This document shows, one piece after another, positions 21,962 to 48,435 of a stretch of DNA of 52,809 bases. Numbering within the stretch: position 1 is the stretch's first letter; the number at the start of each line of letters is the position of its first letter. Below the pieces are notes generated by a model. That model was not told the origin of the DNA and did no database searches. It saw only the letters and a list, made by a program, of their open reading frames with translations. The translations under genes and the position numbers were made by a program. This DNA is from a virus (Duplodnaviria; Caudoviricetes), in IMG/VR virus record IMGVR_UViG_3300030430_003806, positions 1 through 52,809 of that record; one strand, written 5' to 3'.

Positions 21962-23529
21962 TGGCATATTCTGATATTATAAAAGCAATAAATACTTATG
22001 GTGGGTTTTACAATCAAGGTAGAGAATATCAAGCTACAAATCCATATTCAAGTTTAGCTTTTCAACCTTCATTAGAAAATATATATGCAGAAAATCCAGA
22101 ACCAATAAATCCTGTAACACAAGCTAGAGAAATGCAAGATGAAATGACAGGAGCTGACAAAACACTTATGGGTTTAAGTCAATATGGATTAGGAGCTGGT
22201 GTAGGTAAGGGGCTTGCATACGCTGAAGGTAAGGCTCCAGAGTTTCTTACAAAAATATTTAAAGAAGCAACACCCACATCATTTAACCCTGCAGCAGCGT
22301 TAGGAGTATATGCAGCAACAAGAGATCAAAACCCTTATGAATATAGTAATGTAGAGCTTGGGGGTGATATAGCTAGTGGGGCATTACTTGGTACACAAAT
22401 AGCTCCTGGAGTGGGAACAATTATAGGTGGTTTAGTTGGTTTAGGTAAGGGTTTGTTTAGTCAAAGTCAGGCCAAGAAAAAAAAGGACAAAGCAGAAACT
22501 AAATTTCAAAAACAATTAGAAAAAAGACAAGACGCTATTAATGAAGCCGTGATTGACCAAAGAGAACAAATAGCTAACATGAATACAGCTTTAGCATATA
22601 GCGATGAAGCTGGTAAATATCAAAATATATATGGTGGTAATTTATCATTTGAAAATGGTGGTATTTTACAAGCTTTTGGTATGCCTATGGATAGTATTAT
22701 GAATAGACAGATATTTGTTGAGTCTAGTTTTGATCCTTTAGCTAGAAGCAAAAAAAACGCTTTAGGACTAACACAGATCATACCTAAGACATTTGAAGAT
22801 ATGAAAAATCGTGGTTTTGTTCCAGAGGGTAAAACCTTTGAAGATTTAAAAACCGATACAGATTTGTCTATGAATTTGCAAAGTAAATATATGGACGCAT
22901 TACTAAATAGAAGTTGGAATCAGACGGGTAGTGAAGAAGTAAGAGTAGCAAAAGCATTAGCAGCATATAATCTTGGGCCAACAGGATTAGTTGATAGGCT
23001 TAATAAATTAAAAGATAAAGGTGTTGATATATATGGTGGTTTGTCATGGGTAGATAAATTACCTGAAGAAACTAAAAATTATGTAAACAAAATATTAGGA
23101 ATGACAGGTGAAGAGTTTGAGCAAGATTACAAAAAAGGGTTTAAAGAAAGGGGCTCAAAGTTCAATGACGGTGGTAGAAAAAATATTGTAGCTGAATTTA
23201 CTGGAAATGAATTGATAGTAAATGATCAAAATGAAGTAGAGGCTGGACTTAAATCTGGTGATTTTAAAAGAGCTGCTGCCCCTATTAGAAGAGCAATGCA
23301 GGGTGGTATGATTACACCAGGCAAAGAAACTCATGTAAAGAATCCTATGCCTGTAGATGCAGATGGTAATATCTTTTCAAAGAAAGGACAATTGAACTTT
23401 CGCGTGCGTGCGGGCGCGGGCGTGTACGACCATGCAACTGATCAGTTTAAGTCTAATATGGATGATAAAGAAATTGCTATGGTTGCACAAAAAAATATAA
23501 ATAAGTGGAAAAAAAATAATATGGCATAA
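21961..23529 (+). CDS. Ejection/cargo protein with a lytic transglycosylase (SLT) domain
   Basis: VESS, ALGLTQI, ALAAYNLG and ETKNYVNKI SLT motifs; Gly-rich hydrophobic segment APGVGTIIGGLVGLG followed by a coiled coil. Confidence 0.85.
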   Translation: MAYSDIIKAINTYGGFYNQGREYQATNPYSSLAFQPSLENIYAENPEPINPVTQAREMQDEMTGADKTLMGLSQYGLGAGVGKGLAYAEGKAPEFLTKIFKEATPTSFNPAAALGVYAATRDQNPYEYSNVELGGDIASGALLGTQIAPGVGTIIGGLVGLGKGLFSQSQAKKKKDKAETKFQKQLEKRQDAINEAVIDQREQIANMNTALAYSDEAGKYQNIYGGNLSFENGGILQAFGMPMDSIMNRQIFVESSFDPLARSKKNALGLTQIIPKTFEDMKNRGFVPEGKTFEDLKTDTDLSMNLQSKYMDALLNRSWNQTGSEEVRVAKALAAYNLGPTGLVDRLNKLKDKGVDIYGGLSWVDKLPEETKNYVNKILGMTGEEFEQDYKKGFKERGSKFNDGGRKNIVAEFTGNELIVNDQNEVEAGLKSGDFKRAAAPIRRAMQGGMITPGKETHVKNPMPVDADGNIFSKKGQLNFRVRAGAGVYDHATDQFKSNMDDKEIAMVAQKNINKWKKNNMA

Positions 23530-25541
23530 TGAGTAGAGAAGAATTTTTAAATCAACCAGGCGTAAAAGAAAAGTTAGAAGAAATTGCAAAAACACATAAT
23601 TTTTCAGTTGAAGATTTATTAAATGTTATAAAATTTGAAACTGCTAATACATATGATACTACTATAAAAAATCCTAATAGCCCAGCAACAGGGTTAATAC
23701 AGTTTTATCCTGATAAAGGACAAACTTATAAAACTATTAATGGAGTTAAATATGAAATGGAGGACATTAAAAACATGTCTGTTCTTGAACAGCTTGATTT
23801 AGTAAACTCATATTTTATTGAGAATCACACAAAAGGTGAACACCCCTATATTACTGTTGCATTACCTGGTAAAGCAGACTCTGGATTAGATGATATAATA
23901 GCAACTCCAAATGATTCTATTGCTAAAGCAAATCCAAGCTGGACTGATAAAGATGGTAATGTAACAAAAAGAAATATTTTAAAAAATGTTTTACCAGAAG
24001 CAGAAATAGACAACTATTATAGTAAAAAGAAAACTGATGAAATGGAATTTGTTGACGTGCCAGAAGAAGATGATCCAGATATACCTTTAGGTAAAATACC
24101 AACAAAAAAAATAGAACCAAACGCTTTTAGTGCTGGCGTTAAAACAAAGCATACAATTCAGGTAGGGCTTGGTGGATTGCGAGATGGCGTTTTTGTAGGG
24201 GGGTTAACAAAGGAACAAGAAGAAAAATTAGAAGAGCTGGGTATACAAGTTTCAAGCAGACAACAGGGTAATGTTGTTATTTATGAAATAGAAACAAAGA
24301 GTTTAAATGAAGCTAATGAATTAAGAAAAAAAATTGATGATACAAATCTTTTTCGTAGTGTTTTTACAAAACACTTTAAGGTAAACAAAGACGGAACTGA
24401 AGATAGAATTTCTGCTGATCAATTGTATAGATTTACAGGTAAAAAATCATATAAATATGATCCTGCAAAAGATGAAAAAATAAATTTACCTGGAGAAACA
24501 CCACCCTTACCAGAAAGTTATGATGATCTTGCTAAAGATTATGATTATGATGCGGAGGAAGCTCTAAAATATGGCTACAAAGCTGAAGATTGGAAAGCCT
24601 TAAATCCTGGACAAAAACAAGACATAAGAAACATGATGGATCCAATCATGCAAATGCTTCAGGAAGAAAAAGAAATGATTGATAACTATTTCAAAGAAGA
24701 AGCAAAACCAGAAGAAGAAACAAAACCAGAAGAAAAAACTATAAATTTAGAGGGTGACATGAAATCTGTAGATGTGCCAGAATCTGATGATAAAGATCCA
24801 GTTGACACAAAAGAAGTTCTTAGGCAGACAAATCCTGAAGAATTCGCAAGATTGTATCCTGAAGATACGCCTGGAAAAAAAACAATAACGGATGCAATAG
24901 GTGGGGCGGCATCATTTGCCGATTCAGCATTTACTACTGCATCAAAAGTATTAGATGGTATTGGAGGTCCAGGAGCATTAGTTTCATATGTATTAGGTAA
25001 AAGAGCATTGAAAGATGCTATGCAAGAAGTGCAGCCACAAAAAAGAGCCGATCTATCTCCATTGTTTTACGAGCAATATAGACAATCAAAAGAACTTGCT
25101 AAACAAGGATTTGCTCCTAATGAAGAAAGAGCAATTAGAGAGCGTATTGACGATGCATATCAAGTAGGATTAGAAAATGCAGTAAGAGGTACTGCAGGTA
25201 ACAGGGCTAGATTTTTAGCACAGTCTGGAGTATTAGACTCTGCTAGATCTTCGGCACTATTAAACTTTGCAGCACAAGATGATCAACTACGTAGACAGAA
25301 TCAAAAAGAGTTTACTGATCTTATGATGTTTAAAGAAAATTTTGATCAACAAAGATCGGAACAACAAAGAGCAGAAGATATGAGATTACAACTGCAAGAT
25401 AAATCAGCAGCAGGTCAATTTGCTGCACAAGCATTTAGTAATGTATTAAGTGGCTTGTCAGGCAACAATGCTTTATTAAAACGTGCATTTGGAAATTTAC
25501 AATCAGGAGGTTTTTCACCAACAAGTATATTTACAGGTTAA
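23529..25541 (+). CDS. Ejection/cargo protein with an N-terminal lysozyme-like domain and a possible SPOR-like domain
   Basis: VIKFET...ATGLIQFYP...EQLDLVNSYF; helical Gln/Ala-rich C-terminus. Confidence 0.7.
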   Translation: MSREEFLNQPGVKEKLEEIAKTHNFSVEDLLNVIKFETANTYDTTIKNPNSPATGLIQFYPDKGQTYKTINGVKYEMEDIKNMSVLEQLDLVNSYFIENHTKGEHPYITVALPGKADSGLDDIIATPNDSIAKANPSWTDKDGNVTKRNILKNVLPEAEIDNYYSKKKTDEMEFVDVPEEDDPDIPLGKIPTKKIEPNAFSAGVKTKHTIQVGLGGLRDGVFVGGLTKEQEEKLEELGIQVSSRQQGNVVIYEIETKSLNEANELRKKIDDTNLFRSVFTKHFKVNKDGTEDRISADQLYRFTGKKSYKYDPAKDEKINLPGETPPLPESYDDLAKDYDYDAEEALKYGYKAEDWKALNPGQKQDIRNMMDPIMQMLQEEKEMIDNYFKEEAKPEEETKPEEKTINLEGDMKSVDVPESDDKDPVDTKEVLRQTNPEEFARLYPEDTPGKKTITDAIGGAASFADSAFTTASKVLDGIGGPGALVSYVLGKRALKDAMQEVQPQKRADLSPLFYEQYRQSKELAKQGFAPNEERAIRERIDDAYQVGLENAVRGTAGNRARFLAQSGVLDSARSSALLNFAAQDDQLRRQNQKEFTDLMMFKENFDQQRSEQQRAEDMRLQLQDKSAAGQFAAQAFSNVLSGLSGNNALLKRAFGNLQSGGFSPTSIFTG

Positions 25542-25543
25542 TT

Positions 25544-27646
25544 ATGTCAGATTTTGGATACTATAGCGCTTTACTAGGACCACTAAAAACGGCAGGTAAT
25601 TTAGGTCAACAAAGACAAAGAAATGAATTGCAAGCGTTTCAATTGCTTAATACTGTTAGAAACCAACAGATTCAAAACTTCAAAATAAATGAAGCATATC
25701 AAAAACAGTTATTGAATGCAGAGGAGGCTGCTAAAAGCACCTTATTTACTGAAGTAGGTCAAGGTCAAAATAAATTTACATATGGTAGAAAAAAAGATGT
25801 TGATGATTTTAGAGCATGGATGCAAGAGAACTCAAGTTTTGAAGATATAAAAAATGTTTTAAGAGAATATAATGGAAATGTAATGAATGCAAAATTATAT
25901 GGAAATTTAGATCACTATATGGCTCAATATAAACAACAATTACAGAATAATCCAATTCAACAAAGAACACAAAAAAATTTACAAAATCTTAAATCTTTTT
26001 ATAAACATGCACTTGATGTAAATGGTAATGCAAGATTACTTACAAAACAAACGCTTCAAAATTTTGATGCATTTACTAAAGGAGAAATAGATAATTTTAA
26101 GTTTCATGGTTTACGAGGAGATTATTTACCTGCTAACGATGATGCGTTTAAAGCAAAATACGGAGAACTAGCAGCAGGACAAAATTTAACTGCAGAAATG
26201 ATAGTAGCCTTGAATCAAGGTGCAATATTGAAAGATATGATGAATGATTATTATGGAAGCGATTTATCACCACAAGAATATCAAGAAAAAGCATCTGCGT
26301 TTACAAATGAAATGATGATTGCTTATGTTAATAAAGAATTAGGCGGTGAAATGTCAGCAACTGGTGTTCAGTATTTTAATGGTGTACCATTGTATGGTGT
26401 TAAAGAACCACAAGTTGCTATGTCTCAAAGAATATACAAAGCTTTAGAATCAATGAAAGCTATTAGCCCACAGACTGTAGAAGATTATTACACTGGTCTT
26501 GAAGAGGGATTAACAACAAGAAATAGATTTACACTTGGTCAAGATGGTGGTGTTTTTGCTGAATTTGAATCTATAGGTGGCGTTGAATCTGGCACTGGTC
26601 CAGAACGTATAGGAAAAAATGTTCCTTACTTTATTAAAAATAGACAATTAGCTGGAACAGATAAAGTATTTGCAGATCCAAACGTAGAGGCTGGTATTAC
26701 TGAATCTTGGGCACCAAAAATAAGGGTAGATGAAAATAAATATATATCTAAGTATAATAGAACCAAAAAAGAAATAGAAGACTTTGATCCTATTGGAACT
26801 TATAACGATTCTGGTACTTTAATAAAACAAGATGATCAAGGTTTGTTTGGAGAAGAAACTAATATTGATGCAAAACTGCAAGGATATTTTATTGGATATA
26901 AAGTATCTGGTAAAGTTAATGGCATGCCTGAAAGTTTCTTGCTTTTTGATAGTAAAGAAAATACAGATAAAATACTTGATAATTATAAAGATAAAGTTAT
27001 AGAGCCTGTATTATTGGCTGAACTTGTAGACAAAGAATTTGCAAATGATTATTACTATAAAGAAGTAGATATAAAAAATGATGTTATAGCATCTGCAATA
27101 GATGAAAAATTCCCTTCTGAAAATCTTAAAAATGCTGCAATAAGTAGAATATCTGCGGATAAACAAATAGAGTTTAATGCAAATCTTGCAGAAAAAACAG
27201 AAAGTCTAAAAAGAAAACTGACAAAAAGTTTAGAGTTACCAGAAGGATCTGATGTAGATCAGTTTATGAATATGTCAGATAAAAATTTATCTGTATCTTT
27301 AAGACTTAATGATGTTCCAACTAATGTTATAAATTCAGTCATGCCTTACATTATTGGTGATTTATATTCTAATGCAAAAGCAGACAGGCAGTATCCTGTT
27401 GTAATGTCAAGAGACGCTAATGGTAGTCCAGTAGATGTAGCTAATAATCAAAATGAATATTTACAGCTATCAACAAAACTATTCTACAATAGTATATCAA
27501 ATCCAAATAATAGAGATATGCTAGAATCTATTAAGCAAGGGCCAAGTGCATATGATCAATGGAGACAAAGAAATATGCCTAAAAAAGATTATAATAAATC
27601 AAAGACAATAATTAGAGATATAGCAAAGTATTATCATACTCAATGA
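25544..27646 (+). CDS. Putative ejection/cargo protein
   Basis: 700 aa between the cargo genes and RNAP; Gln-rich helical N-terminus. Confidence 0.55.
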   Translation: MSDFGYYSALLGPLKTAGNLGQQRQRNELQAFQLLNTVRNQQIQNFKINEAYQKQLLNAEEAAKSTLFTEVGQGQNKFTYGRKKDVDDFRAWMQENSSFEDIKNVLREYNGNVMNAKLYGNLDHYMAQYKQQLQNNPIQQRTQKNLQNLKSFYKHALDVNGNARLLTKQTLQNFDAFTKGEIDNFKFHGLRGDYLPANDDAFKAKYGELAAGQNLTAEMIVALNQGAILKDMMNDYYGSDLSPQEYQEKASAFTNEMMIAYVNKELGGEMSATGVQYFNGVPLYGVKEPQVAMSQRIYKALESMKAISPQTVEDYYTGLEEGLTTRNRFTLGQDGGVFAEFESIGGVESGTGPERIGKNVPYFIKNRQLAGTDKVFADPNVEAGITESWAPKIRVDENKYISKYNRTKKEIEDFDPIGTYNDSGTLIKQDDQGLFGEETNIDAKLQGYFIGYKVSGKVNGMPESFLLFDSKENTDKILDNYKDKVIEPVLLAELVDKEFANDYYYKEVDIKNDVIASAIDEKFPSENLKNAAISRISADKQIEFNANLAEKTESLKRKLTKSLELPEGSDVDQFMNMSDKNLSVSLRLNDVPTNVINSVMPYIIGDLYSNAKADRQYPVVMSRDANGSPVDVANNQNEYLQLSTKLFYNSISNPNNRDMLESIKQGPSAYDQWRQRNMPKKDYNKSKTIIRDIAKYYHTQ

Positions 27647-30600
27647 TAGAAAAAGATACATACAATACAGATGCAAAAAAAGCTATTTCAGAATATGACA
27701 ATTCTGAAACAAATAGAATTAATAGTTTATTTGATAATATTGTTGTAGGGGAAATACCTAATCAAGAAGCGTCTAATTATTTTAGAGGTCTTGGTGCATT
27801 GGGTTCTGCACAGGCATCACAACCACAAGAACAACCATTGCAAGAAATGCTTGATCCAAGAGCTGCAATAGGCACAGGTAGACAAAGATTTGTAAGAGGT
27901 TTTAAAGCAGGTTGGGGTGATTTGTTGTATGGATCAGGTGACACATATGACTTTATAAAATCATTTTTAACACCAGGAGAACCACAGCCAGACAGTAAAA
28001 TAGGTAATTATTTAAGAAACATAGGAGAGCAATATCAAAACGATAATGTATTAGCTTTATCAAAAGATTTTGATGATATGTCATTTTCTGATTTATTCAA
28101 AGGTGAATTTTATAGCTCTAAGTTTTCTAGACTATTACCATATGCTTTATCATTTGTAGTGCCATATGGAACAGGATCTATATTAGCAACAAGAGCTATG
28201 GGTAGGTATGGTGTGAAAGTTTTATCAAAGTTTGGTAAAGCTGGAAAATTTGCTACACCTGGTACTGGTTTAGCTGGAAAATTTGTATACGATGCAGGTA
28301 AAAAAGGATTAAAGGCAACAAAACTAGCAAAAAAGACTTCTGGTTTAGTAGGTGGTGGTTTAACAGCAAACTTAGTAGAAGGTGCGTATTTATCTGGAGA
28401 AGCATATAATACTATGATTAACGAAAAAGACGCAAACGGTAATCCATTATTTACACCAAAAGAAGCCTCTAGACAAGCTGTAGGCGTTATGGGTGACAAT
28501 ATGAAATGGGCTGGTCTTGATATTTTACAATATGGTTTGTTATTTGGTGGTCTTGGTAGAACGGCAGGTTTTAACATAGGAGCAGTAATGAAAAATGTAA
28601 GACCGCAAAAAATTAAATTTTCAACTAATATTAGAACACTATCAGCTTCATTAATGAAAAAAATATTACCCAATTTACCTGCTGCAGGATTATATGCAAG
28701 TCTTGAGGGATTAACTGAAGGGTTTCAAGAAGTATATCAAGAATGGGCTAAATATGCAAATATACAAGAAGCAAAAGGATTAGAATATGATGACTGGACA
28801 GACTGGTTAAAAACCGCACCAACTGATCAAGCACCTAAAGAGATCAAAGATATTTTTTGGTCAAGCGTAGGTTTAGGCGGTACATTAGGTGGAGTCAGAG
28901 GATATTTTGATTCTGCTGCAGAAAGAACAAAAGCATTTAATGATAAATCTGATCGTGTAAATAAACAAATAGATTTATGGGAACAAAGTTATGAAGATAG
29001 TGCTGCAGGTCAAAGAATGCAAGATGCAATTTTAGCAGAACAAGTTTGGAACTACTATGGTGATGGAACGTATTCAAAAAATCAAATACAACAACAAGTA
29101 GATAGCGGTAAAATGACACAAGAAAGTGCAGACATTTTATTTGAAGCTATAGATAATTTAGAAACTGCATATGAAAAACATACAATAAATTCAGGCCTTA
29201 CTGAAAGTGGAGCGCAGGCAGCTTTCTTCTATGAAGTTGAATTATCTAGAATAAAACAGGAAAAGAAATCTTTAGAAGAATCAAAAAATGAACAAATAGA
29301 TAAAATTTCTAAGGTTATAAAAAATAAAGAAAATCTACAAGAAAAAGTAGATGCAATAGAAAAAGAATACAATGAATTAGTTGAGAAAAAAAATCAAGAG
29401 GAAGCACAATTAAATCAAGAAATTGAGTTTTTGTATACAAGAAAAAAAGACACAGCGCCTAAAACAAAAGCAGGCGCTAGAGATAAAAGATTTAAACCTG
29501 CAGGACTCACTGACCAAGAGTTTGAAACACTTACACAGGAAGGTGAACAACAAAGACAAGAAAGAGAAGCTCAAGAAAAAAAAGATCAACCATCAAGATT
29601 ACAAAGAGTAACAGAAACAGCTAAGAAAGCTGGGGCAGCTGTTGTGACTGGCGCACAAAATGTTATTCAGGCTGGTAGAGATCGTATTAAATCTATTCAA
29701 GACAAAAGAGCAGAAAATAGAAAAATAAAAGATGCGGTAAATCAGATTGATGAAATGGAAAACATTACATCTAGCGCAAAAACAAAATTAAAAGAAGCAG
29801 TTGAAAATGGTGAAGTTACTGTAGAGGATGCTTTAAATATAAAAGGCACTGGTAGAGACGGCAACATCAACAACAAAGATGTTAATTTACTTAAAAAACG
29901 ACAAGAAAGGAAAGATACACAAGCCGAAGAAACGTCTCCTGAAACTCCAGAAGACGTAAAAAAAAAAGACCAAAATAGAGTAGTTCCTAAATCAAGGGAC
30001 TATCAAGAGGTAGAATCTAAAGGTTCTAGAACTCTTGAAAAATCAAAAATAGAAAAAGGTAGAGGTAAGTCATATTACACTATTGTTAAGGATGGTGAAA
30101 AAATATCTTACGTTGATCAAGAAGGCAGATCAGATGTGTTTGTTTTAGAAGATCAAGATGTAGATATAGAGCTAGAAGTTCGTAGTCCACAAAAAGGTCA
30201 AGAAAATGTAGTTAACATTGACGGTCAATTATTTTTTGAGTTTAATAATAAACTATATGAGTCTGAGATTATTGTAAAAGCGAATGGAGTTGAAATCGGT
30301 AAAGTAGCACAAAGAGATTTTGCAAAAGGATTTAAAAGAAAAGCTAAAAAGACTTCAAACAAATCTGTACTTGATAAAGTAAAACAAAAAATTAAAAAGA
30401 AACAAAAAGATGTCAAGGATTATGTTTCTGCAATAAAAGATACAAGGCAAGATCCAGATGAATATGTAGGACTAAAAGCATATGCGCAAAGCGGTGGTAG
30501 AACATCTTTGTATGAGTATAGCTATATTAAATCTATAGTTGATAAAAAGTTTCCTGGCTTCAAAGGTATTCTTATGGATAATCTTATTGATGACTATGGA

Positions 30601-33600
30601 CAAAAATCAGTAGCGCTTGCATTTGGTAATATAATACTTATAAATAGAGATCAAGTTACGCAAACAACGGCTGTTCACGAGGCTGGACATATATACTATA
30701 CGTTACAAAAGAACACGCCATTAATGAAGCGTATACGTAAACTATTATACAGAAGTAAGATCTATGAAGATATTAGAAGAGAGTATCCAGAACTTATACT
30801 TATTAATTATAAAGGAGATAAAATTACTTTAGGAGAACTGTATGATAGAATCAAAACAGATCAATCTCCTAATGTAGATAATGCCATGGTCAGTTTAGCT
30901 AATGAACTTCAAGAAGCAGAAATAGCAAACGATAATACTAAGATAAATGAATTGTTTAATGGCTTATTGTTATTAGCTAAAGGCGACGGAGCTAAAGAAG
31001 TTAGAAGAGATTTGCAAGACCATGTTATAGAAGAAGCATTTGTTAGAACTTTAGAAAATTATTCAAATGGTACAGCTGATTCTGTAATTGAAGGTACATT
31101 AGCTAGAGAACAATTAGAAAAAGACATTATAGAGTTTTATAAAAAAACTAAAGATATAGCTACTGATGAAGAGGCTAGAGAGTTTTTGAACATAGCGGTA
31201 GCTGACATTGAAAATTTAAATCTTGAAACTGCAATAAAGTATGTATTAACTAATTTTGAAGCTAACAATGGTAAGATACCTAAGATTAGAAATAGTGCAT
31301 ATGGGGCAAGAAAAAGAGCATCTAAAGACAAAACAAGACGTATAAGCGGACATTCAGTAATATATTCACACATTAGTAAGTATATAGGTAAAGCACAATC
31401 AACAGATCAGATTACTGCAAGTGTATTGAAAGACCTACAAAAAAACTACAATTTGAGTGAAGAGCAGGTAGCCGATATAAAAACATACATAGAGGCTACA
31501 GTTGAAAAATCAAATAATAAGATACAGTATAAGCAAGGAAACAAAAGGTTTGAAAAACTTTTAGATGATGTAAGTCAAGAGTCTGAAACTCTTAATGATA
31601 TAGAAGCTAGAGAAGAAAAAGATCTTGCAATGTCTACTACCATGTCAAATGTTATGTCAAATATTGTAAGCATATATAATGGTAGAAATCCAGATAATCC
31701 AATGTCACTTAAAAAATTAATGGCAAAGTTAATAGGATTAGCAAAAGACAATAAATATGATTCATATCTGTTTATAACTGCAGCCAGACAAGAAACAGAT
31801 GAAATAGCAAACATGTTTAGCGTATTGGATCAAGTATATCTTAATCCAAGACTAAGTAACGCAAAGCTGCTAGAAATGAAAATGTTTTTTGATAATGTAC
31901 AAATAGAAAACTTTACAAAAAATGCATTAGTTATAGAAGATAAAGGTGTTAGAAGTTGGAGGCAATTTGATGCAACTAGTAGCACACTTGAAAATAGAGT
32001 TGTTACATCTTTACTTAATAAAATAAAAAAAGATCAAAATAAAATAGGGCCCAAACTAGCAGCAGTATATAACGAGCTGTTTGATAAAGATGCTAATAGT
32101 ATATACAACAGAAGAATAGCTGCAAAAAAATATTTAGATAATTTATTTGAAGATGTTGAAAATGCAGGACTTATAGATAAAGATGCTGTATTAAATAACT
32201 TACTATATTTTGATGGCAGAAGAGATTATTTACACAATATATTATTTGATCATACAATAAATAAGTTTGGTAATCCAGATCTTAAAACCAAAGGTCTTAT
32301 GGCTTTTGCAAACAAAAAATTTGTTTTCAAAACAAAAGCATTTACTCCAGGTATATTCAATAAGCAAATAGAACTAAGACAAATACTTACACAATCTTTA
32401 ATACTGTCTAGAGCATCAAACTATTTATCTATAGTTGATAATGTAGAAAATCAAGGTGTAAGTATTCTTAACAAAGAAAATAGCTTACACAATAAGTCTA
32501 TGCGTATAGCAAATAGAGTAAATAACAATGAAGAGTTTTCTAAAAAAAATATATTACATCCTGACAACAATATATTTACAGCTATACTTGAGCAAAGAAA
32601 AAAGAATGGAGAGCTTGTAAATGACAACAAAGATATAATTACAAACCCACTAGGAATAAGTATAAATTCAGGATTGATGACTTATCTTAAAAGTGGTGTA
32701 GAAGCAGAAAGATATGTTGATAAATCATTAGCATATACAAGAATGTCATCTATAGAACTACTAGCAAGTGATTATTTTCAATTTATTTCTCAGTACAATA
32801 AAAACAAAAACAAAAAATCATTTTTCTATCAGCAACCAATAGCTGTATTTTCAGATAAAAGCAGAAGGTATTACGTTGATGCATTAGCTGCACATAATGA
32901 TACTACTACAAAAATTATATTAGATAAAATTAAAAACAATCCTGCGTATAAAGATACATATACAGATGGATCAAGAGTTTTTCCTTTTGATATAACTAAT
33001 AATCAAATTAGTAATATTAAACAACTTGAAAAAGAATTTAATAATTATATAGAAAAAAACATAGAATTATTTAAGGGTAATAAAGACTTTGTAAAAAATA
33101 ATCCTGCTAATAAATTTTTCTTAACATCATATATTGCCAATAAGTTTATGGCACAACAGTTTTTTATACATGATCATAGACAATCTAAAAATGAAATAGA
33201 TTATATAAAAAGAACTGCTGGTGCAATAGCTAGCGGTACACCATATGATAGAAATGCTCAAGTAGAAATGATTATATACAAAGATACTTTTGATAACGAA
33301 GGCAATATACAAAATGATGCTATGGGGTATATGTTACCAGAACAAATACAAGAGGTTTCAGAAAAGTTTGGTGACATTCAAAAGGTTGGTAGTGTATTGA
33401 AGTTTGTATATTATCATACAGACATAGACACAAACGAAACAGTGTATTTAAAGTTTGCTGTCCATCCTATTACCAAAACCATGGAAGATAACAGTGAAGC
33501 GTTTAAAAAAATAGCTGATGATCTAAGAGCTAGACATACAGAAATATCTGAAGTAGTTATAAAAGATTTTGATGGAGAAAATATTTTTTTACATGGAAAC

Positions 33601-36600
33601 TTAGTTCTAGCAGTATCAGAATCATCTACCAAAGTATTTAAAAAAGGTGTAGAAAATAGTGAGTATGTATATGATATTTTTGAAAATACAGAAACTATAA
33701 ATCAAAAACAAAATGAGCTTTATTTAGGAGATGACTATCAAGCATTATCTGGCGAGGGTTTACGTATTCAGTTGGAGCTAGACAAACAATCTAACGAAAG
33801 ATTTTATCCATCACAATTATTTTATCATTTACATACTAACATTGATAGAGATGGTAAACCATTTATTGATAGCATGACTAATAGTCGTACAGAAGTAATG
33901 AATGAAAATAACGAAAGTCGTAACAGAAATATAATAGAAGTTGGTGATAACAAAAATGTATATAAAGAAAGAGATGAGCTTTTGTCATCCGTTAGCTCTA
34001 ATATATATGGACCGCTTATAGAAAACTTTTTTTCATATGCAGATCCAAGATATCCATATATAAATGGTCCTTACAATGCAGCAGCATTAGGAAGGGTGGC
34101 GCATAAGGGTACAAAGATGTATACAAAAGGTAGTATTGCATATCAGTCATCTGATCTAGGATTAAATTTAGAATCATACAAAAAAGTTTCTGACTATTAT
34201 GATGATAATGGTAATTATACTGGAGAAACCAATACGACATCACAAAAAATATTCAAAAGAAAACTAGACCTATTACTAGAAACAAAACCAAATACTATTG
34301 TTTCTGAAGCGTGGATACCAAGCTATATGAAACAACAGGGTGTAGAGATCGGAGATTTGTTTATTGGTACAAGAATACCTGCTCATGGTAAAGTAAGTAG
34401 TTCTGTTTTTATTATAAAAGAGTTTCACGAGAAGGTTGCTAACACACCTAGTAGTAATATTACAATACCTGCAAAGGTAAGTGCAGCTTGGGGTGCAGAC
34501 TTAGACGGAGATAGTGTGCATATGAATTTTAAATATACAGAAGAAGAGGCTAGAAAAACAAATTGGAAAAGAGCAAGCAATTTATTTTTTGACAACTATG
34601 TGCAATTAGTAAGTAATGATAATAAAACAGGTGAAACACAGGCGGTTATAGATATTAAAGATACAGTAGAAAAAATATTAGGTACAGAAACCCCAACCAC
34701 AGATAGTCAATTATTACCAACTGGTGATGCTTTAGTGTTTGAAAACAATGTTCCAGGAAAAAAATTAGTTGGTATTATAGCAGCATTGCAAAGAACATAT
34801 AATATATTTTCACACAATAATGAACCAACTCCTGTACCTATAACAATAAATGGTAAGCGTGTAACAAACTTTAATGATCAAAACAAAGACGAGTGGTTTG
34901 GTGTAGCGCAGTTATTGAACATTGCATTAGATAATGCTAAGTTTCAATACACAGAAAGATTAGGACTTACTTATCAAAGTGTTTTTTCATTTGTAACACT
35001 TAAAAGATTAGGATTTGATCTTAATGATATTGTTCAGATATACAATAGTGATCTTGTTAAAGAATACATGGAGTTTAAAAAATCTAGAAGTAGAAACTAT
35101 TTATCTAGAAATAGTGATATTGAAAAACTTTTTGATAAAGAATCGGATATTAGCTATAATGAATTAGTTGAGTTTTTAAGAACTAGATACAAGGGTATTG
35201 TACTAGGTAAAAAATATAATGCAGTTGCCTGGAATAAAATAACAGATCGTATAAAAGATGGACTATCTATTAATACCAATCAACTTAATGAGCAAGCACA
35301 ATTAGATGCTGTGCTTTTAATCTATACATTAGAACAATTCAATAAAGATGTTGTTAGGCCGTTTGGTAAAGCATTTACTATTCATCAAAATATAGAAAAA
35401 AATCCTGTTGAGTTAAAATCTGTGTATGAACAGATTGAAAAAATTAGAACAGAGTCAATAGTAATTAATGAAAAAAAACAAGGTGGTCTTAATATAGAAT
35501 ATAAACTTGGTAATAGTGCAAACAATAACATTGTAACACATGCGCAAAGTATATTTCAAAAAGTTTTGAATAGAGCCAGTATAACTGATTTAAGATACAC
35601 ACCATATGTGCAAAGTATTATTGCTACTGAAATTGGACAAAACTATTTAAATGATGAAAAAAGAGCTTCTAATAAAACTGAAATTATAAATCAAGTTATT
35701 ACTAACAATCTTATAAATAAATTACCGCAACTTCAGATTTATGATAGGCAAACTTTAATAGCTGAACTAGAAGATATGAAAACTAGATACATAGGTAATG
35801 GTTTTCTTAATATTTTAGAAATAGTAAAAAATGCAGATGGAGTAGAATTTATTACTCTATCTAGTAAAATTAACGATCTAATCAGTAAAACAGAAATAGA
35901 AAACATACAAAGTGAATTTGCTAAATTAAGTATTGAAGATAAAAATAAAATATTTAGCATGGAGGCGGAGTTCAATAAGTTTGGTTATACAGGCTATCCA
36001 AAAGCCATTTCTTTTGCACCATTTTTTGATGTACAATATATGGAAAGCATTAATGATGATATTGATGCTATGGTTGAATCAGAAAATAAAATTGAAGAGG
36101 ATCAGATTTTAGTTAAGCTAGATGAAGCGGCTAGATTAGTTTCATTTAAAAAAGATAAATATAGTCTAAATGATAGAGTAGACAATGCTAGCAAAAAAAG
36201 CAGAGATATACCAATAACAAGAAAAAAAGCTAAAAAAGCATATGGTTCACGTACATCATTCAACAGAGATGCGCTATCTGGTGAAACAAAAAAATATTCA
36301 TTTAATCAGTGGGTAGCTGATAAGGGTATAGATAAGAAAAAAATATCTAGAGATTCAATGACATTTAAATTATTGAAAGATAGATATGCTACATATGAAC
36401 AAGACTATGATATTGTAAAAGAATTTGAAGGTAGTTTAAAGCGTAAGCCACTTTCAAGATATAGTTTTGCAGATTTAGAAAAAACAATAAGAAAGTTTTA
36501 TAAACTTGATAATGCAGCTAGTCAATTTGTATTATACAAAATGGAGCTACAATTAGGAAAACTTGTTTTTCGTAAACAAGCAGAGTTTTTAAGATCAAAA

Positions 36601-38739
36601 GCAGGTCAACAAAACTTTAAGTACAATATTCCAGGTGAAGATGGTACGCCACAAAGCGATATATCTGGCTTTAGACTATGGTTAGGATCTAATAATATGA
36701 CATCTGATAGACCAGAAATACAAGAGTTAATAAATACAGCAGAAAGAGAATATACTTCATATGTAAATAGATTTAGAGAATATAGAAAAGCAATAAATGG
36801 TGCATATAATAAATTATATAATTCAAAAGTATCAGATCTAACAATAATTGAAAGAGTAAAAAAAGAATTTTTACTACAACAAAAGTATGAATTTATATTT
36901 GGTAATATAATCAAAGTAGATAATGGTAAGATAAGATTACTTAATAGTAAAGAATACAATAGAGCAAAAGCATCACTATCTAAAGAAGAAAGAGATTATT
37001 ATGAAATGTATAGAGATGTAACGGCTAGACTATTTAGAGGTCAGCAAAGAGCTGGTAATGATGCGTTGTTTTCATATGTACATGGAGCAAGTATGAGATC
37101 TTTAGAAGCTATGGATAAGAATGGCATGTTTGGTTTGTATGATATGATTATAGATTCAACTGATTATAATCGTGTAAAAGTAAGGGGTAAGGATCTAGAT
37201 GGTAAAATAAAACTTAAAACATTCTATGAGTGGAAATATGATGTGTACAAAAACAAAAGCACATTCGGTGGATTAAGAGAACTAAATAAACTTAGAGCAA
37301 AAGCTAAAAGATTTAAAAAACAAGGCATCAATGAGGATGGATCAAAAATACTATTGTCAGATGTAGAAATAGATGCACTAATAAACAACGGTCAGCTACT
37401 ACAAAAGATGTTGGATAAAAACATTAAAGGAGCATCTGATATAGATCTTGAAATAATTAAAGAGTATGAAAGACGAAGAGGTGCAGCTTTAGAATTTGCT
37501 ACTATGGATATCAATACAGCTTTACTTGAGTTTGCCAGAGGTAGTTTATTTTCTAATGGCGATTCTGAGTTTGGAGGTATGAAACAAACTAGTATACTTA
37601 CTAATGCTGCTATAGCATATAATAAAAATCTAAACAACGAGAATGCAGTCAAGTATTTGACTGAGTGGTGGAAACAAGGCTTTTTAGGTAAACAACAACA
37701 AACAAGTATATTTGGAGAAACAGGCGACAAGGTGATAGATGGATTTGTAAGTCTTACGTCATTAAGATTATTAGGATTTAATTTATCAGTTGGTGTAGGT
37801 AACTTATTAGCTGGTAAATACCAAGAATTACGTAAGCGTGGTGGTAGACAATTTATTACAGGAGAAGATAGATATTTTAGAAATAGAGGTAAGTCATTAG
37901 AAATACTTAAAAAATATAGGGTTATACAGCATAGCTTTGATGATTTTGTTCATTTATCTGAAGGTAAGGGTTTATGGGGTAAAATAGAAAAAGCATCATT
38001 TATCTTTATGGATAAAACGGAACACTATATACAGGGTGCTGCATTTTTAGGATTTCTTACAAATCAAGAGTTCAACACTGGTGAGATCAGTGAGTTAAGG
38101 GTTAGAGAAATAAATAACAGAATAGCAACATTACATGGTGAGGGTTATACGGCCTTAGACGCATCACTATTATCTATGTATTCATATGGTAGATCTTTAC
38201 TACAATTTAAGAAATGGTGGCTAACATTATTTGCTGATCGTTTTGGATCAGAGCAGATTAATAGATTTGGCGAAGTAACTATTGGAAGTTATACTGCAGC
38301 CACACAATATACAAGAGACATCTTTCAAAAATATTTTAGAGGTGAGATTACTATGGTAGACTTTTTTGAAGAGTATAAAAAACTATCACCTGCACGTCAA
38401 GAAGAAATAAAAAGTTTTATGCGGGGTATTGGTATTACTGTAGCAATACTATCTATGATAGCTATATTGGAAGACGATGATGATCCAGATACAGAGGTTA
38501 TCAAAGCTCTTAAAAAACTAGAAAATGATATATATGCAGCTACAGATATAGATAGATTTATTGGGTATACTATTATACCTGCATCTATTGCTACTGGTGA
38601 AACAGCAGTTGATTTTATAGGTGAAGTTGCGTTAGACAAAAAAGATAGACTAGGTAGAAGTAAAGCTTTACGTACACTAAAAACAGAATTGATTCCTGGT
38701 TCTAGTTTAGTTGAAGGAATAGAAAACCTTATAGATTAA
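27643..38739 (+). CDS. Virion-packaged two-barrel RNA polymerase polyprotein with a zincin-like domain
   Basis: 3698 aa; RIPAHG...GADLDGD catalytic loop (34492-34512), DYIKR, NDAMGY, KFVY and YLKF motifs; VHEAGH plus a downstream EE (about 30670-31040); hydrophobic segments at both termini. Confidence 0.9.
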   Translation: MIEKDTYNTDAKKAISEYDNSETNRINSLFDNIVVGEIPNQEASNYFRGLGALGSAQASQPQEQPLQEMLDPRAAIGTGRQRFVRGFKAGWGDLLYGSGDTYDFIKSFLTPGEPQPDSKIGNYLRNIGEQYQNDNVLALSKDFDDMSFSDLFKGEFYSSKFSRLLPYALSFVVPYGTGSILATRAMGRYGVKVLSKFGKAGKFATPGTGLAGKFVYDAGKKGLKATKLAKKTSGLVGGGLTANLVEGAYLSGEAYNTMINEKDANGNPLFTPKEASRQAVGVMGDNMKWAGLDILQYGLLFGGLGRTAGFNIGAVMKNVRPQKIKFSTNIRTLSASLMKKILPNLPAAGLYASLEGLTEGFQEVYQEWAKYANIQEAKGLEYDDWTDWLKTAPTDQAPKEIKDIFWSSVGLGGTLGGVRGYFDSAAERTKAFNDKSDRVNKQIDLWEQSYEDSAAGQRMQDAILAEQVWNYYGDGTYSKNQIQQQVDSGKMTQESADILFEAIDNLETAYEKHTINSGLTESGAQAAFFYEVELSRIKQEKKSLEESKNEQIDKISKVIKNKENLQEKVDAIEKEYNELVEKKNQEEAQLNQEIEFLYTRKKDTAPKTKAGARDKRFKPAGLTDQEFETLTQEGEQQRQEREAQEKKDQPSRLQRVTETAKKAGAAVVTGAQNVIQAGRDRIKSIQDKRAENRKIKDAVNQIDEMENITSSAKTKLKEAVENGEVTVEDALNIKGTGRDGNINNKDVNLLKKRQERKDTQAEETSPETPEDVKKKDQNRVVPKSRDYQEVESKGSRTLEKSKIEKGRGKSYYTIVKDGEKISYVDQEGRSDVFVLEDQDVDIELEVRSPQKGQENVVNIDGQLFFEFNNKLYESEIIVKANGVEIGKVAQRDFAKGFKRKAKKTSNKSVLDKVKQKIKKKQKDVKDYVSAIKDTRQDPDEYVGLKAYAQSGGRTSLYEYSYIKSIVDKKFPGFKGILMDNLIDDYGQKSVALAFGNIILINRDQVTQTTAVHEAGHIYYTLQKNTPLMKRIRKLLYRSKIYEDIRREYPELILINYKGDKITLGELYDRIKTDQSPNVDNAMVSLANELQEAEIANDNTKINELFNGLLLLAKGDGAKEVRRDLQDHVIEEAFVRTLENYSNGTADSVIEGTLAREQLEKDIIEFYKKTKDIATDEEAREFLNIAVADIENLNLETAIKYVLTNFEANNGKIPKIRNSAYGARKRASKDKTRRISGHSVIYSHISKYIGKAQSTDQITASVLKDLQKNYNLSEEQVADIKTYIEATVEKSNNKIQYKQGNKRFEKLLDDVSQESETLNDIEAREEKDLAMSTTMSNVMSNIVSIYNGRNPDNPMSLKKLMAKLIGLAKDNKYDSYLFITAARQETDEIANMFSVLDQVYLNPRLSNAKLLEMKMFFDNVQIENFTKNALVIEDKGVRSWRQFDATSSTLENRVVTSLLNKIKKDQNKIGPKLAAVYNELFDKDANSIYNRRIAAKKYLDNLFEDVENAGLIDKDAVLNNLLYFDGRRDYLHNILFDHTINKFGNPDLKTKGLMAFANKKFVFKTKAFTPGIFNKQIELRQILTQSLILSRASNYLSIVDNVENQGVSILNKENSLHNKSMRIANRVNNNEEFSKKNILHPDNNIFTAILEQRKKNGELVNDNKDIITNPLGISINSGLMTYLKSGVEAERYVDKSLAYTRMSSIELLASDYFQFISQYNKNKNKKSFFYQQPIAVFSDKSRRYYVDALAAHNDTTTKIILDKIKNNPAYKDTYTDGSRVFPFDITNNQISNIKQLEKEFNNYIEKNIELFKGNKDFVKNNPANKFFLTSYIANKFMAQQFFIHDHRQSKNEIDYIKRTAGAIASGTPYDRNAQVEMIIYKDTFDNEGNIQNDAMGYMLPEQIQEVSEKFGDIQKVGSVLKFVYYHTDIDTNETVYLKFAVHPITKTMEDNSEAFKKIADDLRARHTEISEVVIKDFDGENIFLHGNLVLAVSESSTKVFKKGVENSEYVYDIFENTETINQKQNELYLGDDYQALSGEGLRIQLELDKQSNERFYPSQLFYHLHTNIDRDGKPFIDSMTNSRTEVMNENNESRNRNIIEVGDNKNVYKERDELLSSVSSNIYGPLIENFFSYADPRYPYINGPYNAAALGRVAHKGTKMYTKGSIAYQSSDLGLNLESYKKVSDYYDDNGNYTGETNTTSQKIFKRKLDLLLETKPNTIVSEAWIPSYMKQQGVEIGDLFIGTRIPAHGKVSSSVFIIKEFHEKVANTPSSNITIPAKVSAAWGADLDGDSVHMNFKYTEEEARKTNWKRASNLFFDNYVQLVSNDNKTGETQAVIDIKDTVEKILGTETPTTDSQLLPTGDALVFENNVPGKKLVGIIAALQRTYNIFSHNNEPTPVPITINGKRVTNFNDQNKDEWFGVAQLLNIALDNAKFQYTERLGLTYQSVFSFVTLKRLGFDLNDIVQIYNSDLVKEYMEFKKSRSRNYLSRNSDIEKLFDKESDISYNELVEFLRTRYKGIVLGKKYNAVAWNKITDRIKDGLSINTNQLNEQAQLDAVLLIYTLEQFNKDVVRPFGKAFTIHQNIEKNPVELKSVYEQIEKIRTESIVINEKKQGGLNIEYKLGNSANNNIVTHAQSIFQKVLNRASITDLRYTPYVQSIIATEIGQNYLNDEKRASNKTEIINQVITNNLINKLPQLQIYDRQTLIAELEDMKTRYIGNGFLNILEIVKNADGVEFITLSSKINDLISKTEIENIQSEFAKLSIEDKNKIFSMEAEFNKFGYTGYPKAISFAPFFDVQYMESINDDIDAMVESENKIEEDQILVKLDEAARLVSFKKDKYSLNDRVDNASKKSRDIPITRKKAKKAYGSRTSFNRDALSGETKKYSFNQWVADKGIDKKKISRDSMTFKLLKDRYATYEQDYDIVKEFEGSLKRKPLSRYSFADLEKTIRKFYKLDNAASQFVLYKMELQLGKLVFRKQAEFLRSKAGQQNFKYNIPGEDGTPQSDISGFRLWLGSNNMTSDRPEIQELINTAEREYTSYVNRFREYRKAINGAYNKLYNSKVSDLTIIERVKKEFLLQQKYEFIFGNIIKVDNGKIRLLNSKEYNRAKASLSKEERDYYEMYRDVTARLFRGQQRAGNDALFSYVHGASMRSLEAMDKNGMFGLYDMIIDSTDYNRVKVRGKDLDGKIKLKTFYEWKYDVYKNKSTFGGLRELNKLRAKAKRFKKQGINEDGSKILLSDVEIDALINNGQLLQKMLDKNIKGASDIDLEIIKEYERRRGAALEFATMDINTALLEFARGSLFSNGDSEFGGMKQTSILTNAAIAYNKNLNNENAVKYLTEWWKQGFLGKQQQTSIFGETGDKVIDGFVSLTSLRLLGFNLSVGVGNLLAGKYQELRKRGGRQFITGEDRYFRNRGKSLEILKKYRVIQHSFDDFVHLSEGKGLWGKIEKASFIFMDKTEHYIQGAAFLGFLTNQEFNTGEISELRVREINNRIATLHGEGYTALDASLLSMYSYGRSLLQFKKWWLTLFADRFGSEQINRFGEVTIGSYTAATQYTRDIFQKYFRGEITMVDFFEEYKKLSPARQEEIKSFMRGIGITVAILSMIAILEDDDDPDTEVIKALKKLENDIYAATDIDRFIGYTIIPASIATGETAVDFIGEVALDKKDRLGRSKALRTLKTELIPGSSLVEGIENLID

Positions 38740-47958: not shown

Positions 47959-48435
47959 ATGAAACTTAAGGTTTTAAGATTTAGTAGCCAGGAGGATAGC
48001 ACTTCTGGCTTACTTTTTTTAGACCACAATGATGGTCTTGAATTTCTATGTTATACTCTTGAAGATGAACACAGATCAAAAAAAGTAAGAGGAGAAACAA
48101 GAGTACCTGCTGGTACATATAATTTATCACTTAGAAAAGTAGGAGGCTTCCATGAAAGATACAAAAAGAAATATGGTGCGTTTCATAAAGGGATGTTACA
48201 AGTTATGGATGTACCAAACTTTGAATATATTCTTATACATACTGGTAACACTGATGAACATACTGCTGGATGTTTACTTGTTGGTGACTCTCAAGAAAAC
48301 AACATCATTATCAAAGATGGATTTATTGGTAAATCAAATAATGCGTACAAAAGAATATATCCAGATATTGCAAAAGAGATTAAGAAAGGCAATAAGGTAA
48401 CAATTCAGTATATTGATTTAGATAACAATGATTAG
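47959..48435 (+). CDS. DUF5675-like protein, putative endolysin (L,D-transpeptidase-like His/Cys motif)
   Basis: FLCYTLED...GETRVPAGTY...VPNFEYILIHTGNTDEHTAGCLLVG. Confidence 0.8.
   Translation: MKLKVLRFSSQEDSTSGLLFLDHNDGLEFLCYTLEDEHRSKKVRGETRVPAGTYNLSLRKVGGFHERYKKKYGAFHKGMLQVMDVPNFEYILIHTGNTDEHTAGCLLVGDSQENNIIIKDGFIGKSNNAYKRIYPDIAKEIKKGNKVTIQYIDLDNND

Follow-up and report, generated by a model that had tools for sequence, protein, structure and literature searches.

The record IMGVR_UViG_3300030430_003806, a linear DNA of 52,809 nucleotides from a tailed virus (Duplodnaviria; Caudoviricetes) that was analysed over its whole length and is called the window here, carries an open reading frame (ORF) of 3698 amino acids (aa) encoding a putative crAss-like virion polyprotein, and in the N-terminal part of that polyprotein lies a mini-domain resembling the peripheral subunit-binding domain (PSBD; E3_binding in Pfam) of the E2 subunits of 2-oxoacid dehydrogenases. 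We find that the mini-domain is likely to be a divergent PSBD-superfamily domain whose first half is longer, one that Pfam's own threshold leaves out, and on balance we favor the joint statement that it is a PSBD-derived docking module, in which the docking is what we infer. The domain family is a known one, met here in altered form and in a new setting. To our knowledge, the PSBD has so far been described in just two roles, that of holding 2-oxoacid dehydrogenase complexes together and that of a model for ultrafast folding. Full-text literature searches, whose coverage excludes the supplementary domain tables of crAss-like papers so that an earlier listing there is possible, returned no paper in which PSBD or E3_binding is connected to crAss-like phages or to virion proteins of phages. 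A conserved, diverged PSBD in a polyprotein that is probably ejected, together with canonical copies in the head module of another phage, would widen the range of the family.

Direct translation of positions 29761-29890 (+) in frame 1 gives the peptide NITSSAKTKLKEAVENGEVTVEDALNIKGTGRDGNINNKDVNL, residues 707-749 of the giant ORF. The initial annotation had read the same peptide at this place, and the translation bears it out; the stretch is kept in 19 of the 28 homologues of the giant ORF (2269-4231 aa, 25-55% identical overall), which were collected by a word-indexed search. Translated in all six frames, the window contains the pattern G[ST]G..G.[ILV]...D[ILV] a single time, and 300 residue shuffles never produce it. 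On the reverse strand the sole frame translated at the site is filled with stops, and no minus-strand ORF of at least 100 aa overlaps it. The 19 homologous stretches and the query form a 20-sequence alignment (A2), whose profile matches the window at 29728-29910 with E 3.7e-26. Seven columns of A2 are invariant in 20/20 sequences (A17, K18, L21, G40, G42, I47 and D51), and I4, I13, T14, G28 and I38 are conserved in at least 90%. All seven invariant residues map onto positions of the PSBD signature, for which we used [ST]-P-x-A-[RK]-[RK]-x-A ... G-[ST]-G-x-x-G-R-[IV]-x-x-x-D-[IV], checked on 15 flavobacterial PSBDs. In the stretch GTGxxG-x-I-x3-DV, whose conservation the initial annotation had named as decisive, the G-x-G, the I and the D are thus the same in every copy, but the second Gly is present in only 7/20.

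For the query alone the sequence case for a PSBD is suggestive and no more. Searched against PDB sequences, the A2 profile gives 29 matches at E <= 10, the best being 1w4h (E 8.6e-4); 25 bear the names of E2 or other 2-oxoacid dehydrogenase components, one more (8qp6) takes its name from a PSBD entry, and the last three are unrelated proteins. Against 1.84 billion representative proteins the same profile gives 49 matches at E <= 1e-3, from which 25 were retrieved and 10 scanned with Pfam. A genuine E2 (P0052, with a lipoyl domain, three E3_binding domains and a catalytic domain) is matched at E 1.2e-5, and among the 10 scanned proteins are five short ones with above-threshold E3_binding, of which four have 2-3 separately scored repeats.

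In a profile-profile comparison with hhalign, A2 aligns to 47 PSBD repeats taken from the large-library matches at a probability of 97.5% (E 5.4e-12); the alignment runs the full length of the PSBD and contains insertions of 3 residues in helix 1 and 4 residues after the conserved Gly. Against a second template set, for which the Pfam model by itself picked 15 PSBDs out of five flavobacterial genomes, the probability is 93.1% (P 3.2e-7, 23 columns), and against each of the three sequence groups of this set taken separately it is 76-87%; on our reading of their sequences, no tool having assigned them, these groups would be the PDH, OGDH and BCKDH types of E2. The segment that outgroup polyproteins have in place of the mini-domain, which is not homologous to it, served as negative control and scores 0.1-0.6% against all three template sets. 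A candidate degenerate PSBD in the outgroup of 35-39% identity (the 'GK.NGTI' segment at the same position) was rejected at that same probability of 0.1-0.6%, with no detectable relation. In the flavobacterial PSBDs the motif is SPxAKK; its Lys, in place of the Arg of the textbook PSBD, agrees with the invariant A-K of the phage mini-domain. The flavobacterial PSBDs of the putative BCKDH type already have a longer inter-helix segment. In two of the large-library matches (P0046 and P0047) canonical repeats are followed at the end by one with the longer, phage-type spacing. These features of the flavobacterial and mixed-repeat proteins favor descent over convergence.

The AlphaFold2 model built from A2 has a predicted local distance difference test score (pLDDT) of 88.9 and helices at model residues 2-8, 15-26, 32-36 and 49-60, and its residues 11/12-61 superpose on whole PSBD chains at 1.4-1.7 Å. 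In a VIA-align comparison with 48,161 chains, nine reach Z >= 5, and six of these are PSBD or E3-binding domains (3rnm_F, 2f5z_K, 1zy8_K, 4qoy_F, 1w85_I and 8oqj_A), aligned over 42-49 of 42-54 residues at 1.4-2.0 Å and 21-30% identity. The closest are 3rnm_F (Z 5.8, 1.4 Å, 43/43 residues) and 2f5z_K (Z 5.5, 1.5 Å, 43/43), with 4qoy (Z 5.1, 1.6 Å, 44/46 residues) and 1w85_I (Z 5.1, 1.7 Å, 42/42) close to them. The arrangement that defines the PSBD fold (a pair of near-parallel helices connected by a turn or short helix and by a loop rich in Gly, within ~35-45 residues) is seen on the predicted model only, and there the overlay on PSBD chains is a structural match of the kind that the initial annotation had asked for. 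The remaining three chains are RuvBL AAA+ lids at 2.8-2.9 Å (over the structural comparisons together, such lids give Z 5.5-6.8 at 2.7-3.0 Å), a likeness that we set aside as a generic small helical arrangement with no sequence support. The BFVD library of viral folds gives nothing at E <= 0.001 (best E 1.0).

A number of observations weigh against the reading of the mini-domain as a PSBD-derived docking module. The Pfam scan that the initial annotation had proposed as a check leaves the query below the E3_binding (PF02817) cut-off of 23.7 bits, at 14.2 bits (E 0.051) for a 43-aa piece and 12.9 bits for a 61-aa piece, with the former covering only profile positions 20-35/36 (positions 20-35 fall on window 29836-29883); one of eight copies scanned individually does pass, the homologue P0004 at 26.4 bits, followed by P0003 at 20.4 and P0024 at 17.1. 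P0004 is also the only phage copy that keeps G-R-I. Most of the sequence matches are confined to the second half of the mini-domain, those in PDB spanning only A2 positions ~36-60, and the first half has weak matches elsewhere: scanned singly, 7/20 A2 members match E3_binding at E <= 1, 11/20 match GatB_Yqey and 5/20 match a SHOCT-like model, which fits the first half of the query as weakly as E3_binding fits the query. An 83-aa query fragment returns only noise from PDB sequences, such as designed ankyrins. The comparison with 47 repeats is circular, because its templates were picked from matches of the same A2 profile. On the structural side, the two top Foldseek matches in PDB are PSBDs (1w4e and 2coo) at a non-significant E of 1.4, the RuvBL lids reach Z-scores as high as those of the PSBDs, and the model itself may lean on learned PSBD motifs. 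Small helical models commonly reach Z 5-6, the tool's own warning applying to anything below Z 8, and for that reason the fold evidence weighs only jointly with the sequence evidence. As for docking, the mini-domain was not seen in 9 of the 28 homologues, 8 with unrelated sequence at the position and 1 (P0028) without the N-terminal part, and so it is dispensable for the core function of the polyprotein; the invariant residues apart from K18 look structural, lying in the core or in turns, and the mini-domain may therefore have no specific partner.

Several of these points could also be explained if the mini-domain were an ordinary helical hairpin with a SHOCT-like first half and a G-x-G turn, arrived at by convergence or chance with no PSBD descent. 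The subthreshold Pfam score of the query, the modest Z-scores and the non-significant Foldseek E-values would then be expected, and the first half does match SHOCT-like repeat proteins in the large library (P0044, P0049 and P0050), where only that half of A2 is aligned. Such an origin leaves the agreement of Pfam scans, the PDB profile search, the search of 1.84 billion proteins, hhalign with its negative control and the predicted fold to coincidence, although all of these except the first are built on A2, and it has to place seven invariant residues on PSBD signature positions by chance in a world where proteins combining canonical and long-spacing repeats exist. We give it a small chance of being right. 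The claim of an E3-binding (PSBD)-like mini-domain, with which the initial annotation began, is supported by profile, profile-profile and predicted-structure comparison alike.

The mini-domain lies about 260 residues before an HExxH motif and about 870 residues upstream of a two-barrel RNA polymerase module in the giant ORF (Table 1). That module is the central and most conserved part of the ORF, and Foldseek places its model closest to 6vr4_A, the virion RNA polymerase gp66 of phage phi14:2 (E 1.6e-15, probability 1.00, TMq 0.59), with QDE-1 and RDR2 next, in keeping with the virion RNA polymerase-type module that the initial annotation had recognized; Atlas clusters RNA_pol_Rpb1_2 and LEF-9 (0.88-0.89) are a lead only. 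The catalytic Asp motif of crAss-like virion RNA polymerases is worded DFDxD in the accessible part of the phi14:2 preprint (10.1101/2020.03.07.982082), and the DLDGD of the giant ORF appears, by its sequence, to be of this type. The same part of that source has gp66 translocated into the host, a zincin-like protease domain in gp65 orthologues and, in some phages, gp65, gp66 and gp67 fused as one polyprotein that is probably cleaved (10.1101/2020.03.07.982082). By analogy with these statements, the N-terminal, putatively zincin-bearing part of the giant ORF would correspond to a gp65-like component; searches of Pfam and PHROGs gave this part no family match, and its HEAGH motif is conserved at 90% or more. 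Since the mini-domain occupies residues 706-756 and the polymerase fold ~1580-2470, the mini-domain belongs to the gp65-like part and stands outside the polymerase, not inside it as had first been annotated.

Table 1. Positions of the mini-domain, its flanks and the other features of the giant ORF in the window.
Feature	Positions	Strand	Basis
Giant ORF, 3698 aa; putative fused crAss-like virion polyprotein (zincin-bearing N-terminal part, RNA polymerase module, C-terminal part)	27643..38739	+	ORF list, translation, 28 homologues, accessible part of the phi14:2 preprint (10.1101/2020.03.07.982082) on gp65/gp66/gp67 fusions
PSBD-like mini-domain, residues 706-756 (ENITSS...KKRQER)	29758..29910	+	Translation, profile, model overlay, hhalign (query 11-60)
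Predicted helix 1, residues 710-721, AKTKLKEAVENG, with invariant A-K and L	29770..29805	+	DSSP helix 15-26 of the model, invariant columns
GTGRDGNINNKDV, Gly-rich loop and start of helix 2, the part best matching PSBD profiles	29845..29883	+	Regular-expression match at aa index 9948 of frame 1
Upstream charged linker or coiled-coil region, residues ~551-700, of variable length among homologues	29293..29742	+	Charge counts, large indels in the alignment
Downstream charged linker, residues 757-800, with conserved DVKKKDQ..V.PKTK motif	29911..30042	+	Charge counts, consensus/alignment
Two-barrel RNA polymerase module, residues 1580-2470	32380..35052	+	AlphaFold2 model (pLDDT 70.5) and Foldseek
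DLDGD, residues 2286-2290, putative catalytic metal-binding motif	34498..34512	+	D2286, D2288, G2289 and D2290 invariant in 29 sequences
HEAGH, residues 1012-1016, zincin-type HExxH motif	30676..30690	+	H1012, E1013, G1015 and H1016 at least 90% conserved

Both flanks of the mini-domain are highly charged, with 21-23 charged residues per 50 in windows covering residues 551-650 upstream and with 26/50 charged and 6 hydrophobic residues at 751-800 downstream. Within the variable downstream linker the motif DVKKKDQ..V.PKTK.Y (window 29950-30010, residues ~770-790) is strongly conserved and may serve in processing or as a short linear motif for docking. Elsewhere in the giant ORF, residues 1-530 (window 27643-29230) form a conserved, Gly-rich region with many near-invariant Gly and aromatic residues and no match to a Pfam family, a PHROG or a PDB sequence. 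In the whole 3698-aa protein just one segment is strongly hydrophobic and transmembrane-like; it lies near the C-terminus at residues 3589-3611 (window 38407-38475; Kyte-Doolittle 1.94 over 19 residues) and is followed by the acidic run EDDDD.

The window is a whole IMG/VR record, estimated as 79% complete, which puts the genome at roughly 67 kb. TerL, portal and major head protein genes lie upstream of the giant ORF in a structural block, and directly upstream of it are a gene for an SLT-domain protein and two further large ORFs. From its position in this block and its likeness to the phi14:2 proteins, the product of the giant ORF would be packaged in the virion and translocated into the host. 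Among the matches listed, TerL has 22-30% identity to its counterparts in phages of Flavobacterium, Bacteroides, Cellulophaga and Tenacibaculum, of which many carry a crAss-like name or classification, and these relatives make Bacteroidota the likely hosts. The giant ORF has no PHROGs family, neither the whole protein nor a whole-protein profile (A1) finds a polymerase among PDB sequences, and in 50,697 phage records there is no megablast match to window 29000-31000 and no tblastn match to the polymerase region. Beyond the structural block, an ORF of at least 1460 aa (window 48428-52807 (+)) runs off the end of the record and has tail-fibre and repeated structural-protein PHROG matches.

A hidden Markov model made from A2 was run on six-frame ORFs of at least 50 aa from the window, 36 related IMG/VR loci and one locus (L001) that is a piece of the window. 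The mini-domain is found once in the window and once each in 21/36 related loci, and not in any further ORF; among the 15 loci without a match, some do not extend over the N-terminal part of the gene. Searches of whole records likewise give one match each in the window, in a relative that is 100% complete (G006) and in a third genome (G007), and none in two relatives at a greater distance, whose completeness is 84% and 96%. The A2 profile has no match in five reference phages with a TerL of the same family (Elemovirus elemoA, Cellulophaga phi46:3, Fpv3, Azobacteroides ProJPt-Bp1 and cr10_1), in a search whose positive control recovered 3/5 IMG/VR relatives including the window, and tblastn of the 61-aa domain finds nothing at E <= 1 in the 50,697 phage records.

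The carrier is the giant ORF in every positive locus except L022, which comes from G007. In this genome the polymerase ORF, of 4000 aa, is without the mini-domain, and the carrier is a 1194-aa GH108 lysozyme protein encoded two genes upstream (L022:8717-12301 (+)), where the mini-domain stands between the N-terminal GH108 domain and a region aligning with the MORN-repeat part of another database match, P0038. Absent from the polymerase ORF of G007 and present in its lysozyme protein, the mini-domain appears to travel among virion or ejection proteins and not with the polymerase. The combination of lysozyme and mini-domain has three representatives among the database matches (P0038, P0042 and P0043). 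The mini-domain is kept at one copy per genome while changing carrier, and it is dispensable in some lineages.

The lysozyme carrier also has a counterpart in the window, in that its C-terminal ~200 residues are homologous to the C-terminus of the product of ORF 23529-25541 (+). The two belong to a modular family of virion proteins with conserved C-terminal ~200 residues and interchangeable N-terminal parts, which are a GH108 lysozyme in the L022 protein and P0038, a phage lysozyme in P0042 and a region with peptidase- and baseplate-hub-like PHROG matches in the window protein.

From these results we propose that residues 706-756, by the predicted model, fold on their own into a small domain (helix, short helix, Gly-rich loop, helix), probably captured from a bacterial E2 gene. 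Strongly charged linkers of variable length would tether it on either side within the N-terminal, putatively zincin-bearing part of the polyprotein. As a tethered knob it would dock the polyprotein, or an N-terminal cleavage product of it, onto a protein partner, and the partner is more probably a phage protein that co-evolves with it, among those of the virion cargo or ejection set, than the conserved host E3 or E1. In the Geobacillus complex, PSBD makes its contacts through two arginines of helix 1 and the Arg of G-R-[IV]. At the latter position flavobacterial PSBDs have R-[IV] in 15/15 cases, 14 of them as G-R-[IV], as against Arg in 1/20, Lys in 1/20 and Ile or Val in 13/20 phage copies, and the preceding Gly is lost in 13/20. 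The first basic position of helix 1 is Lys in 20/20 phage copies and the second is Lys in 4/20. The core of the mini-domain is net basic, with a mean of +3.85 over the 20 copies, so that its electrostatic character is not lost. With the E3/E1-contacting Arg lost and the equivalent surface positions varying, a phage partner is likelier than host E3/E1; a conserved host target should fix the interface, and the variation observed fits either a co-evolving phage partner or no specific partner at all.

The initial annotation had suggested that the polyprotein docks on, or mimics, host pyruvate or 2-oxoglutarate dehydrogenase components. Put fully, the mini-domain would after ejection dock the polyprotein on host E3 (dihydrolipoamide dehydrogenase) or on E1 of the pyruvate, 2-oxoglutarate or branched-chain complexes, or would compete with host E2, with early transcription tethered to central metabolism or metabolism perturbed as a result. 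The idea draws on homology to, and the predicted fold of, a domain whose only known job is binding E3 and E1, on the net basic charge and on the invariant Lys, which is equivalent to the main binding Arg of PSBD and is the same residue in flavobacterial PSBDs; in addition, the subgroup of the query retains GTGR.G and the second helix-1 Lys, and the likely Bacteroidota hosts possess E3 and three E2s with PSBDs. It has to face the near loss of the G-R-[IV] Arg and the rarity of the second helix-1 Lys at an interface that a conserved target should have held constant, the insertions of 3 and 4 residues in helix 1 and the inter-helix segment relative to canonical PSBDs, the loss or replacement of the mini-domain in several lineages and, in one phage, its fusion behind a peptidoglycan hydrolase domain that is active outside the cytoplasm. 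A complex prediction for the A2 domain with two copies of Polaribacter lipoamide dehydrogenase (A4, an alignment of six flavobacterial Lpd sequences) gave 0.01 against a mark of 0.32 in a single run without controls, and speaks neither for nor against binding. Docking on host E3 or E1 is therefore unproven and looks unlikely from the sequences at hand, and as an account of the mini-domain we regard it as doubtful.

The basic charge of the core (+3.85) could also serve nucleic-acid binding, with the mini-domain as a basic helix-extended loop-helix module that holds the polyprotein on the packaged or ejected genome. A carrier protein that travels with the DNA, as the accessible part of the preprint has it (10.1101/2020.03.07.982082), would suit such a role, as would a weak structural likeness to DNA-binding helical modules such as KorB (Z 4.7-4.9). 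That likeness is at 3.2 Å, as against 1.4-2.0 Å for the PSBDs, Pfam scans return no DNA-binding family above noise, and the basic residues other than K18 are not conserved in position. The chance of this role is very slim.

A partner is not needed at all if the mini-domain is a tiny, fast-folding bead in a charged linker, acting as a spacer or as a refolding ratchet that pulls the unfolded polyprotein through the tail channel. Conserved positions that are nearly all core or turn, and flanks that are charged and variable in length, are what a bead would show; PSBDs are ultrafast folders according to the titles of PDB entries 1w4e to 1w4k, and ejection of the carrier through the tail is stated for gp66 in the accessible part of the preprint (10.1101/2020.03.07.982082). 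As pure inference, this account leaves unexplained both the invariant surface Lys and the presence of exactly one copy per genome despite the change of carrier, and we rate its probability as low. The docking module derived from PSBD, most plausibly facing a phage partner, is the reading that we carry forward.

The boldest version of events is that a crAss-like lineage captured the docking domain of a host E2, and that its ejected polyprotein latches onto host E3 or E1 at infection. We hold this to be improbable; if it were true, the incoming transcription machinery would be anchored on an abundant cytoplasmic megacomplex, or E2 would be displaced and the oxidation of pyruvate and 2-oxoglutarate throttled, and the two-PSBD proteins in the head modules of other phages, described below, would be a second instance of the strategy. 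A host E3 or E1 partner would amount to a new kind of metabolic contact between phage and host, and a phage partner would mark an interface of assembly or ejection. The mini-domain also offers a small, easily expressed handle on the large uncharacterised N-terminal parts of crAss-like virion polyproteins.

Compared with the PSBD of E2 or of E3-binding protein, the phage mini-domain is alike in its order of helix 1, short helix, G-[ST]-G loop and helix 2 over ~45-50 residues, in the common signature A-K, L, G-x-G, I and D, in its tethering by flexible linkers and in a helix-1 Lys shared with flavobacterial PSBDs. Unlike in an E2, its carrier has neither a lipoyl nor an acyltransferase domain, with no match to Biotin_lipoyl or 2-oxoacid_dh at E <= 10 anywhere in the 3698-aa protein in a Pfam scan. 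Its helix 1 is longer by one turn (3 residues, the insertion seen with hhalign) and its inter-helix segment by 4 residues, the 'GRI' Arg is lost in 18/20 copies, and the query falls under the Pfam cut-off.

The nearest counterpart of the carrier is the gp65-gp66-gp67 set of phi14:2, of which gp66 is the protein of 6VR4. The two share a central module with the gp66 fold and an invariant DLDGD, an HExxH motif upstream as in gp65 orthologues and a gene placed within a structural block after TerL, portal and major head protein. They differ in that the sequence of the giant ORF is too distant for phmmer or profile detection of the deposited gp66, and in that the genome is roughly 67 kb here against about 100 kb.

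Proteins with PSBD-type repeats occur also among the large-library matches outside the window. Nine of these (P0040, P0045, P0048, P0051, P0053, P0055, P0056, P0059 and P0060) are ~200 aa long, with three PSBD-type repeats and a poly-acidic C-terminal tail; the repeats were read by eye, and in the two of nine that were scanned Pfam scored 3 in P0040 and 2 in P0045. For P0045 no relative was found in IMG/VR viral contigs, and a PHROGs search with 10 PSBD-bearing matches gave nothing informative.

Another kind of phage PSBD protein is found on unrelated tailed-phage contigs, where a 147-aa ORF (L184:2852-3295 (+); also L180-L183 and L185) contains two canonical E3_binding domains and scores 51.5 bits, above the Pfam cut-off. 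Its gene lies between those for the major head protein (L184:1649-2779) and the head-tail adaptor (L184:3299-3790), a slot that often holds head decoration or accessory proteins. Relatives in the representative library are P0057, P0063, P0066 and P0073, and the first of these has no tblastn match in the 50,697 phage records. Like the mini-domain, the L184-type proteins bring PSBD-family domains into a phage structural module; unlike it, their domains are canonical, in tandem and in a small protein of unrelated tailed phages, with no single copy embedded in linkers and no polymerase. Their presence in another phage structural module indicates that phages recruited PSBD more than once.

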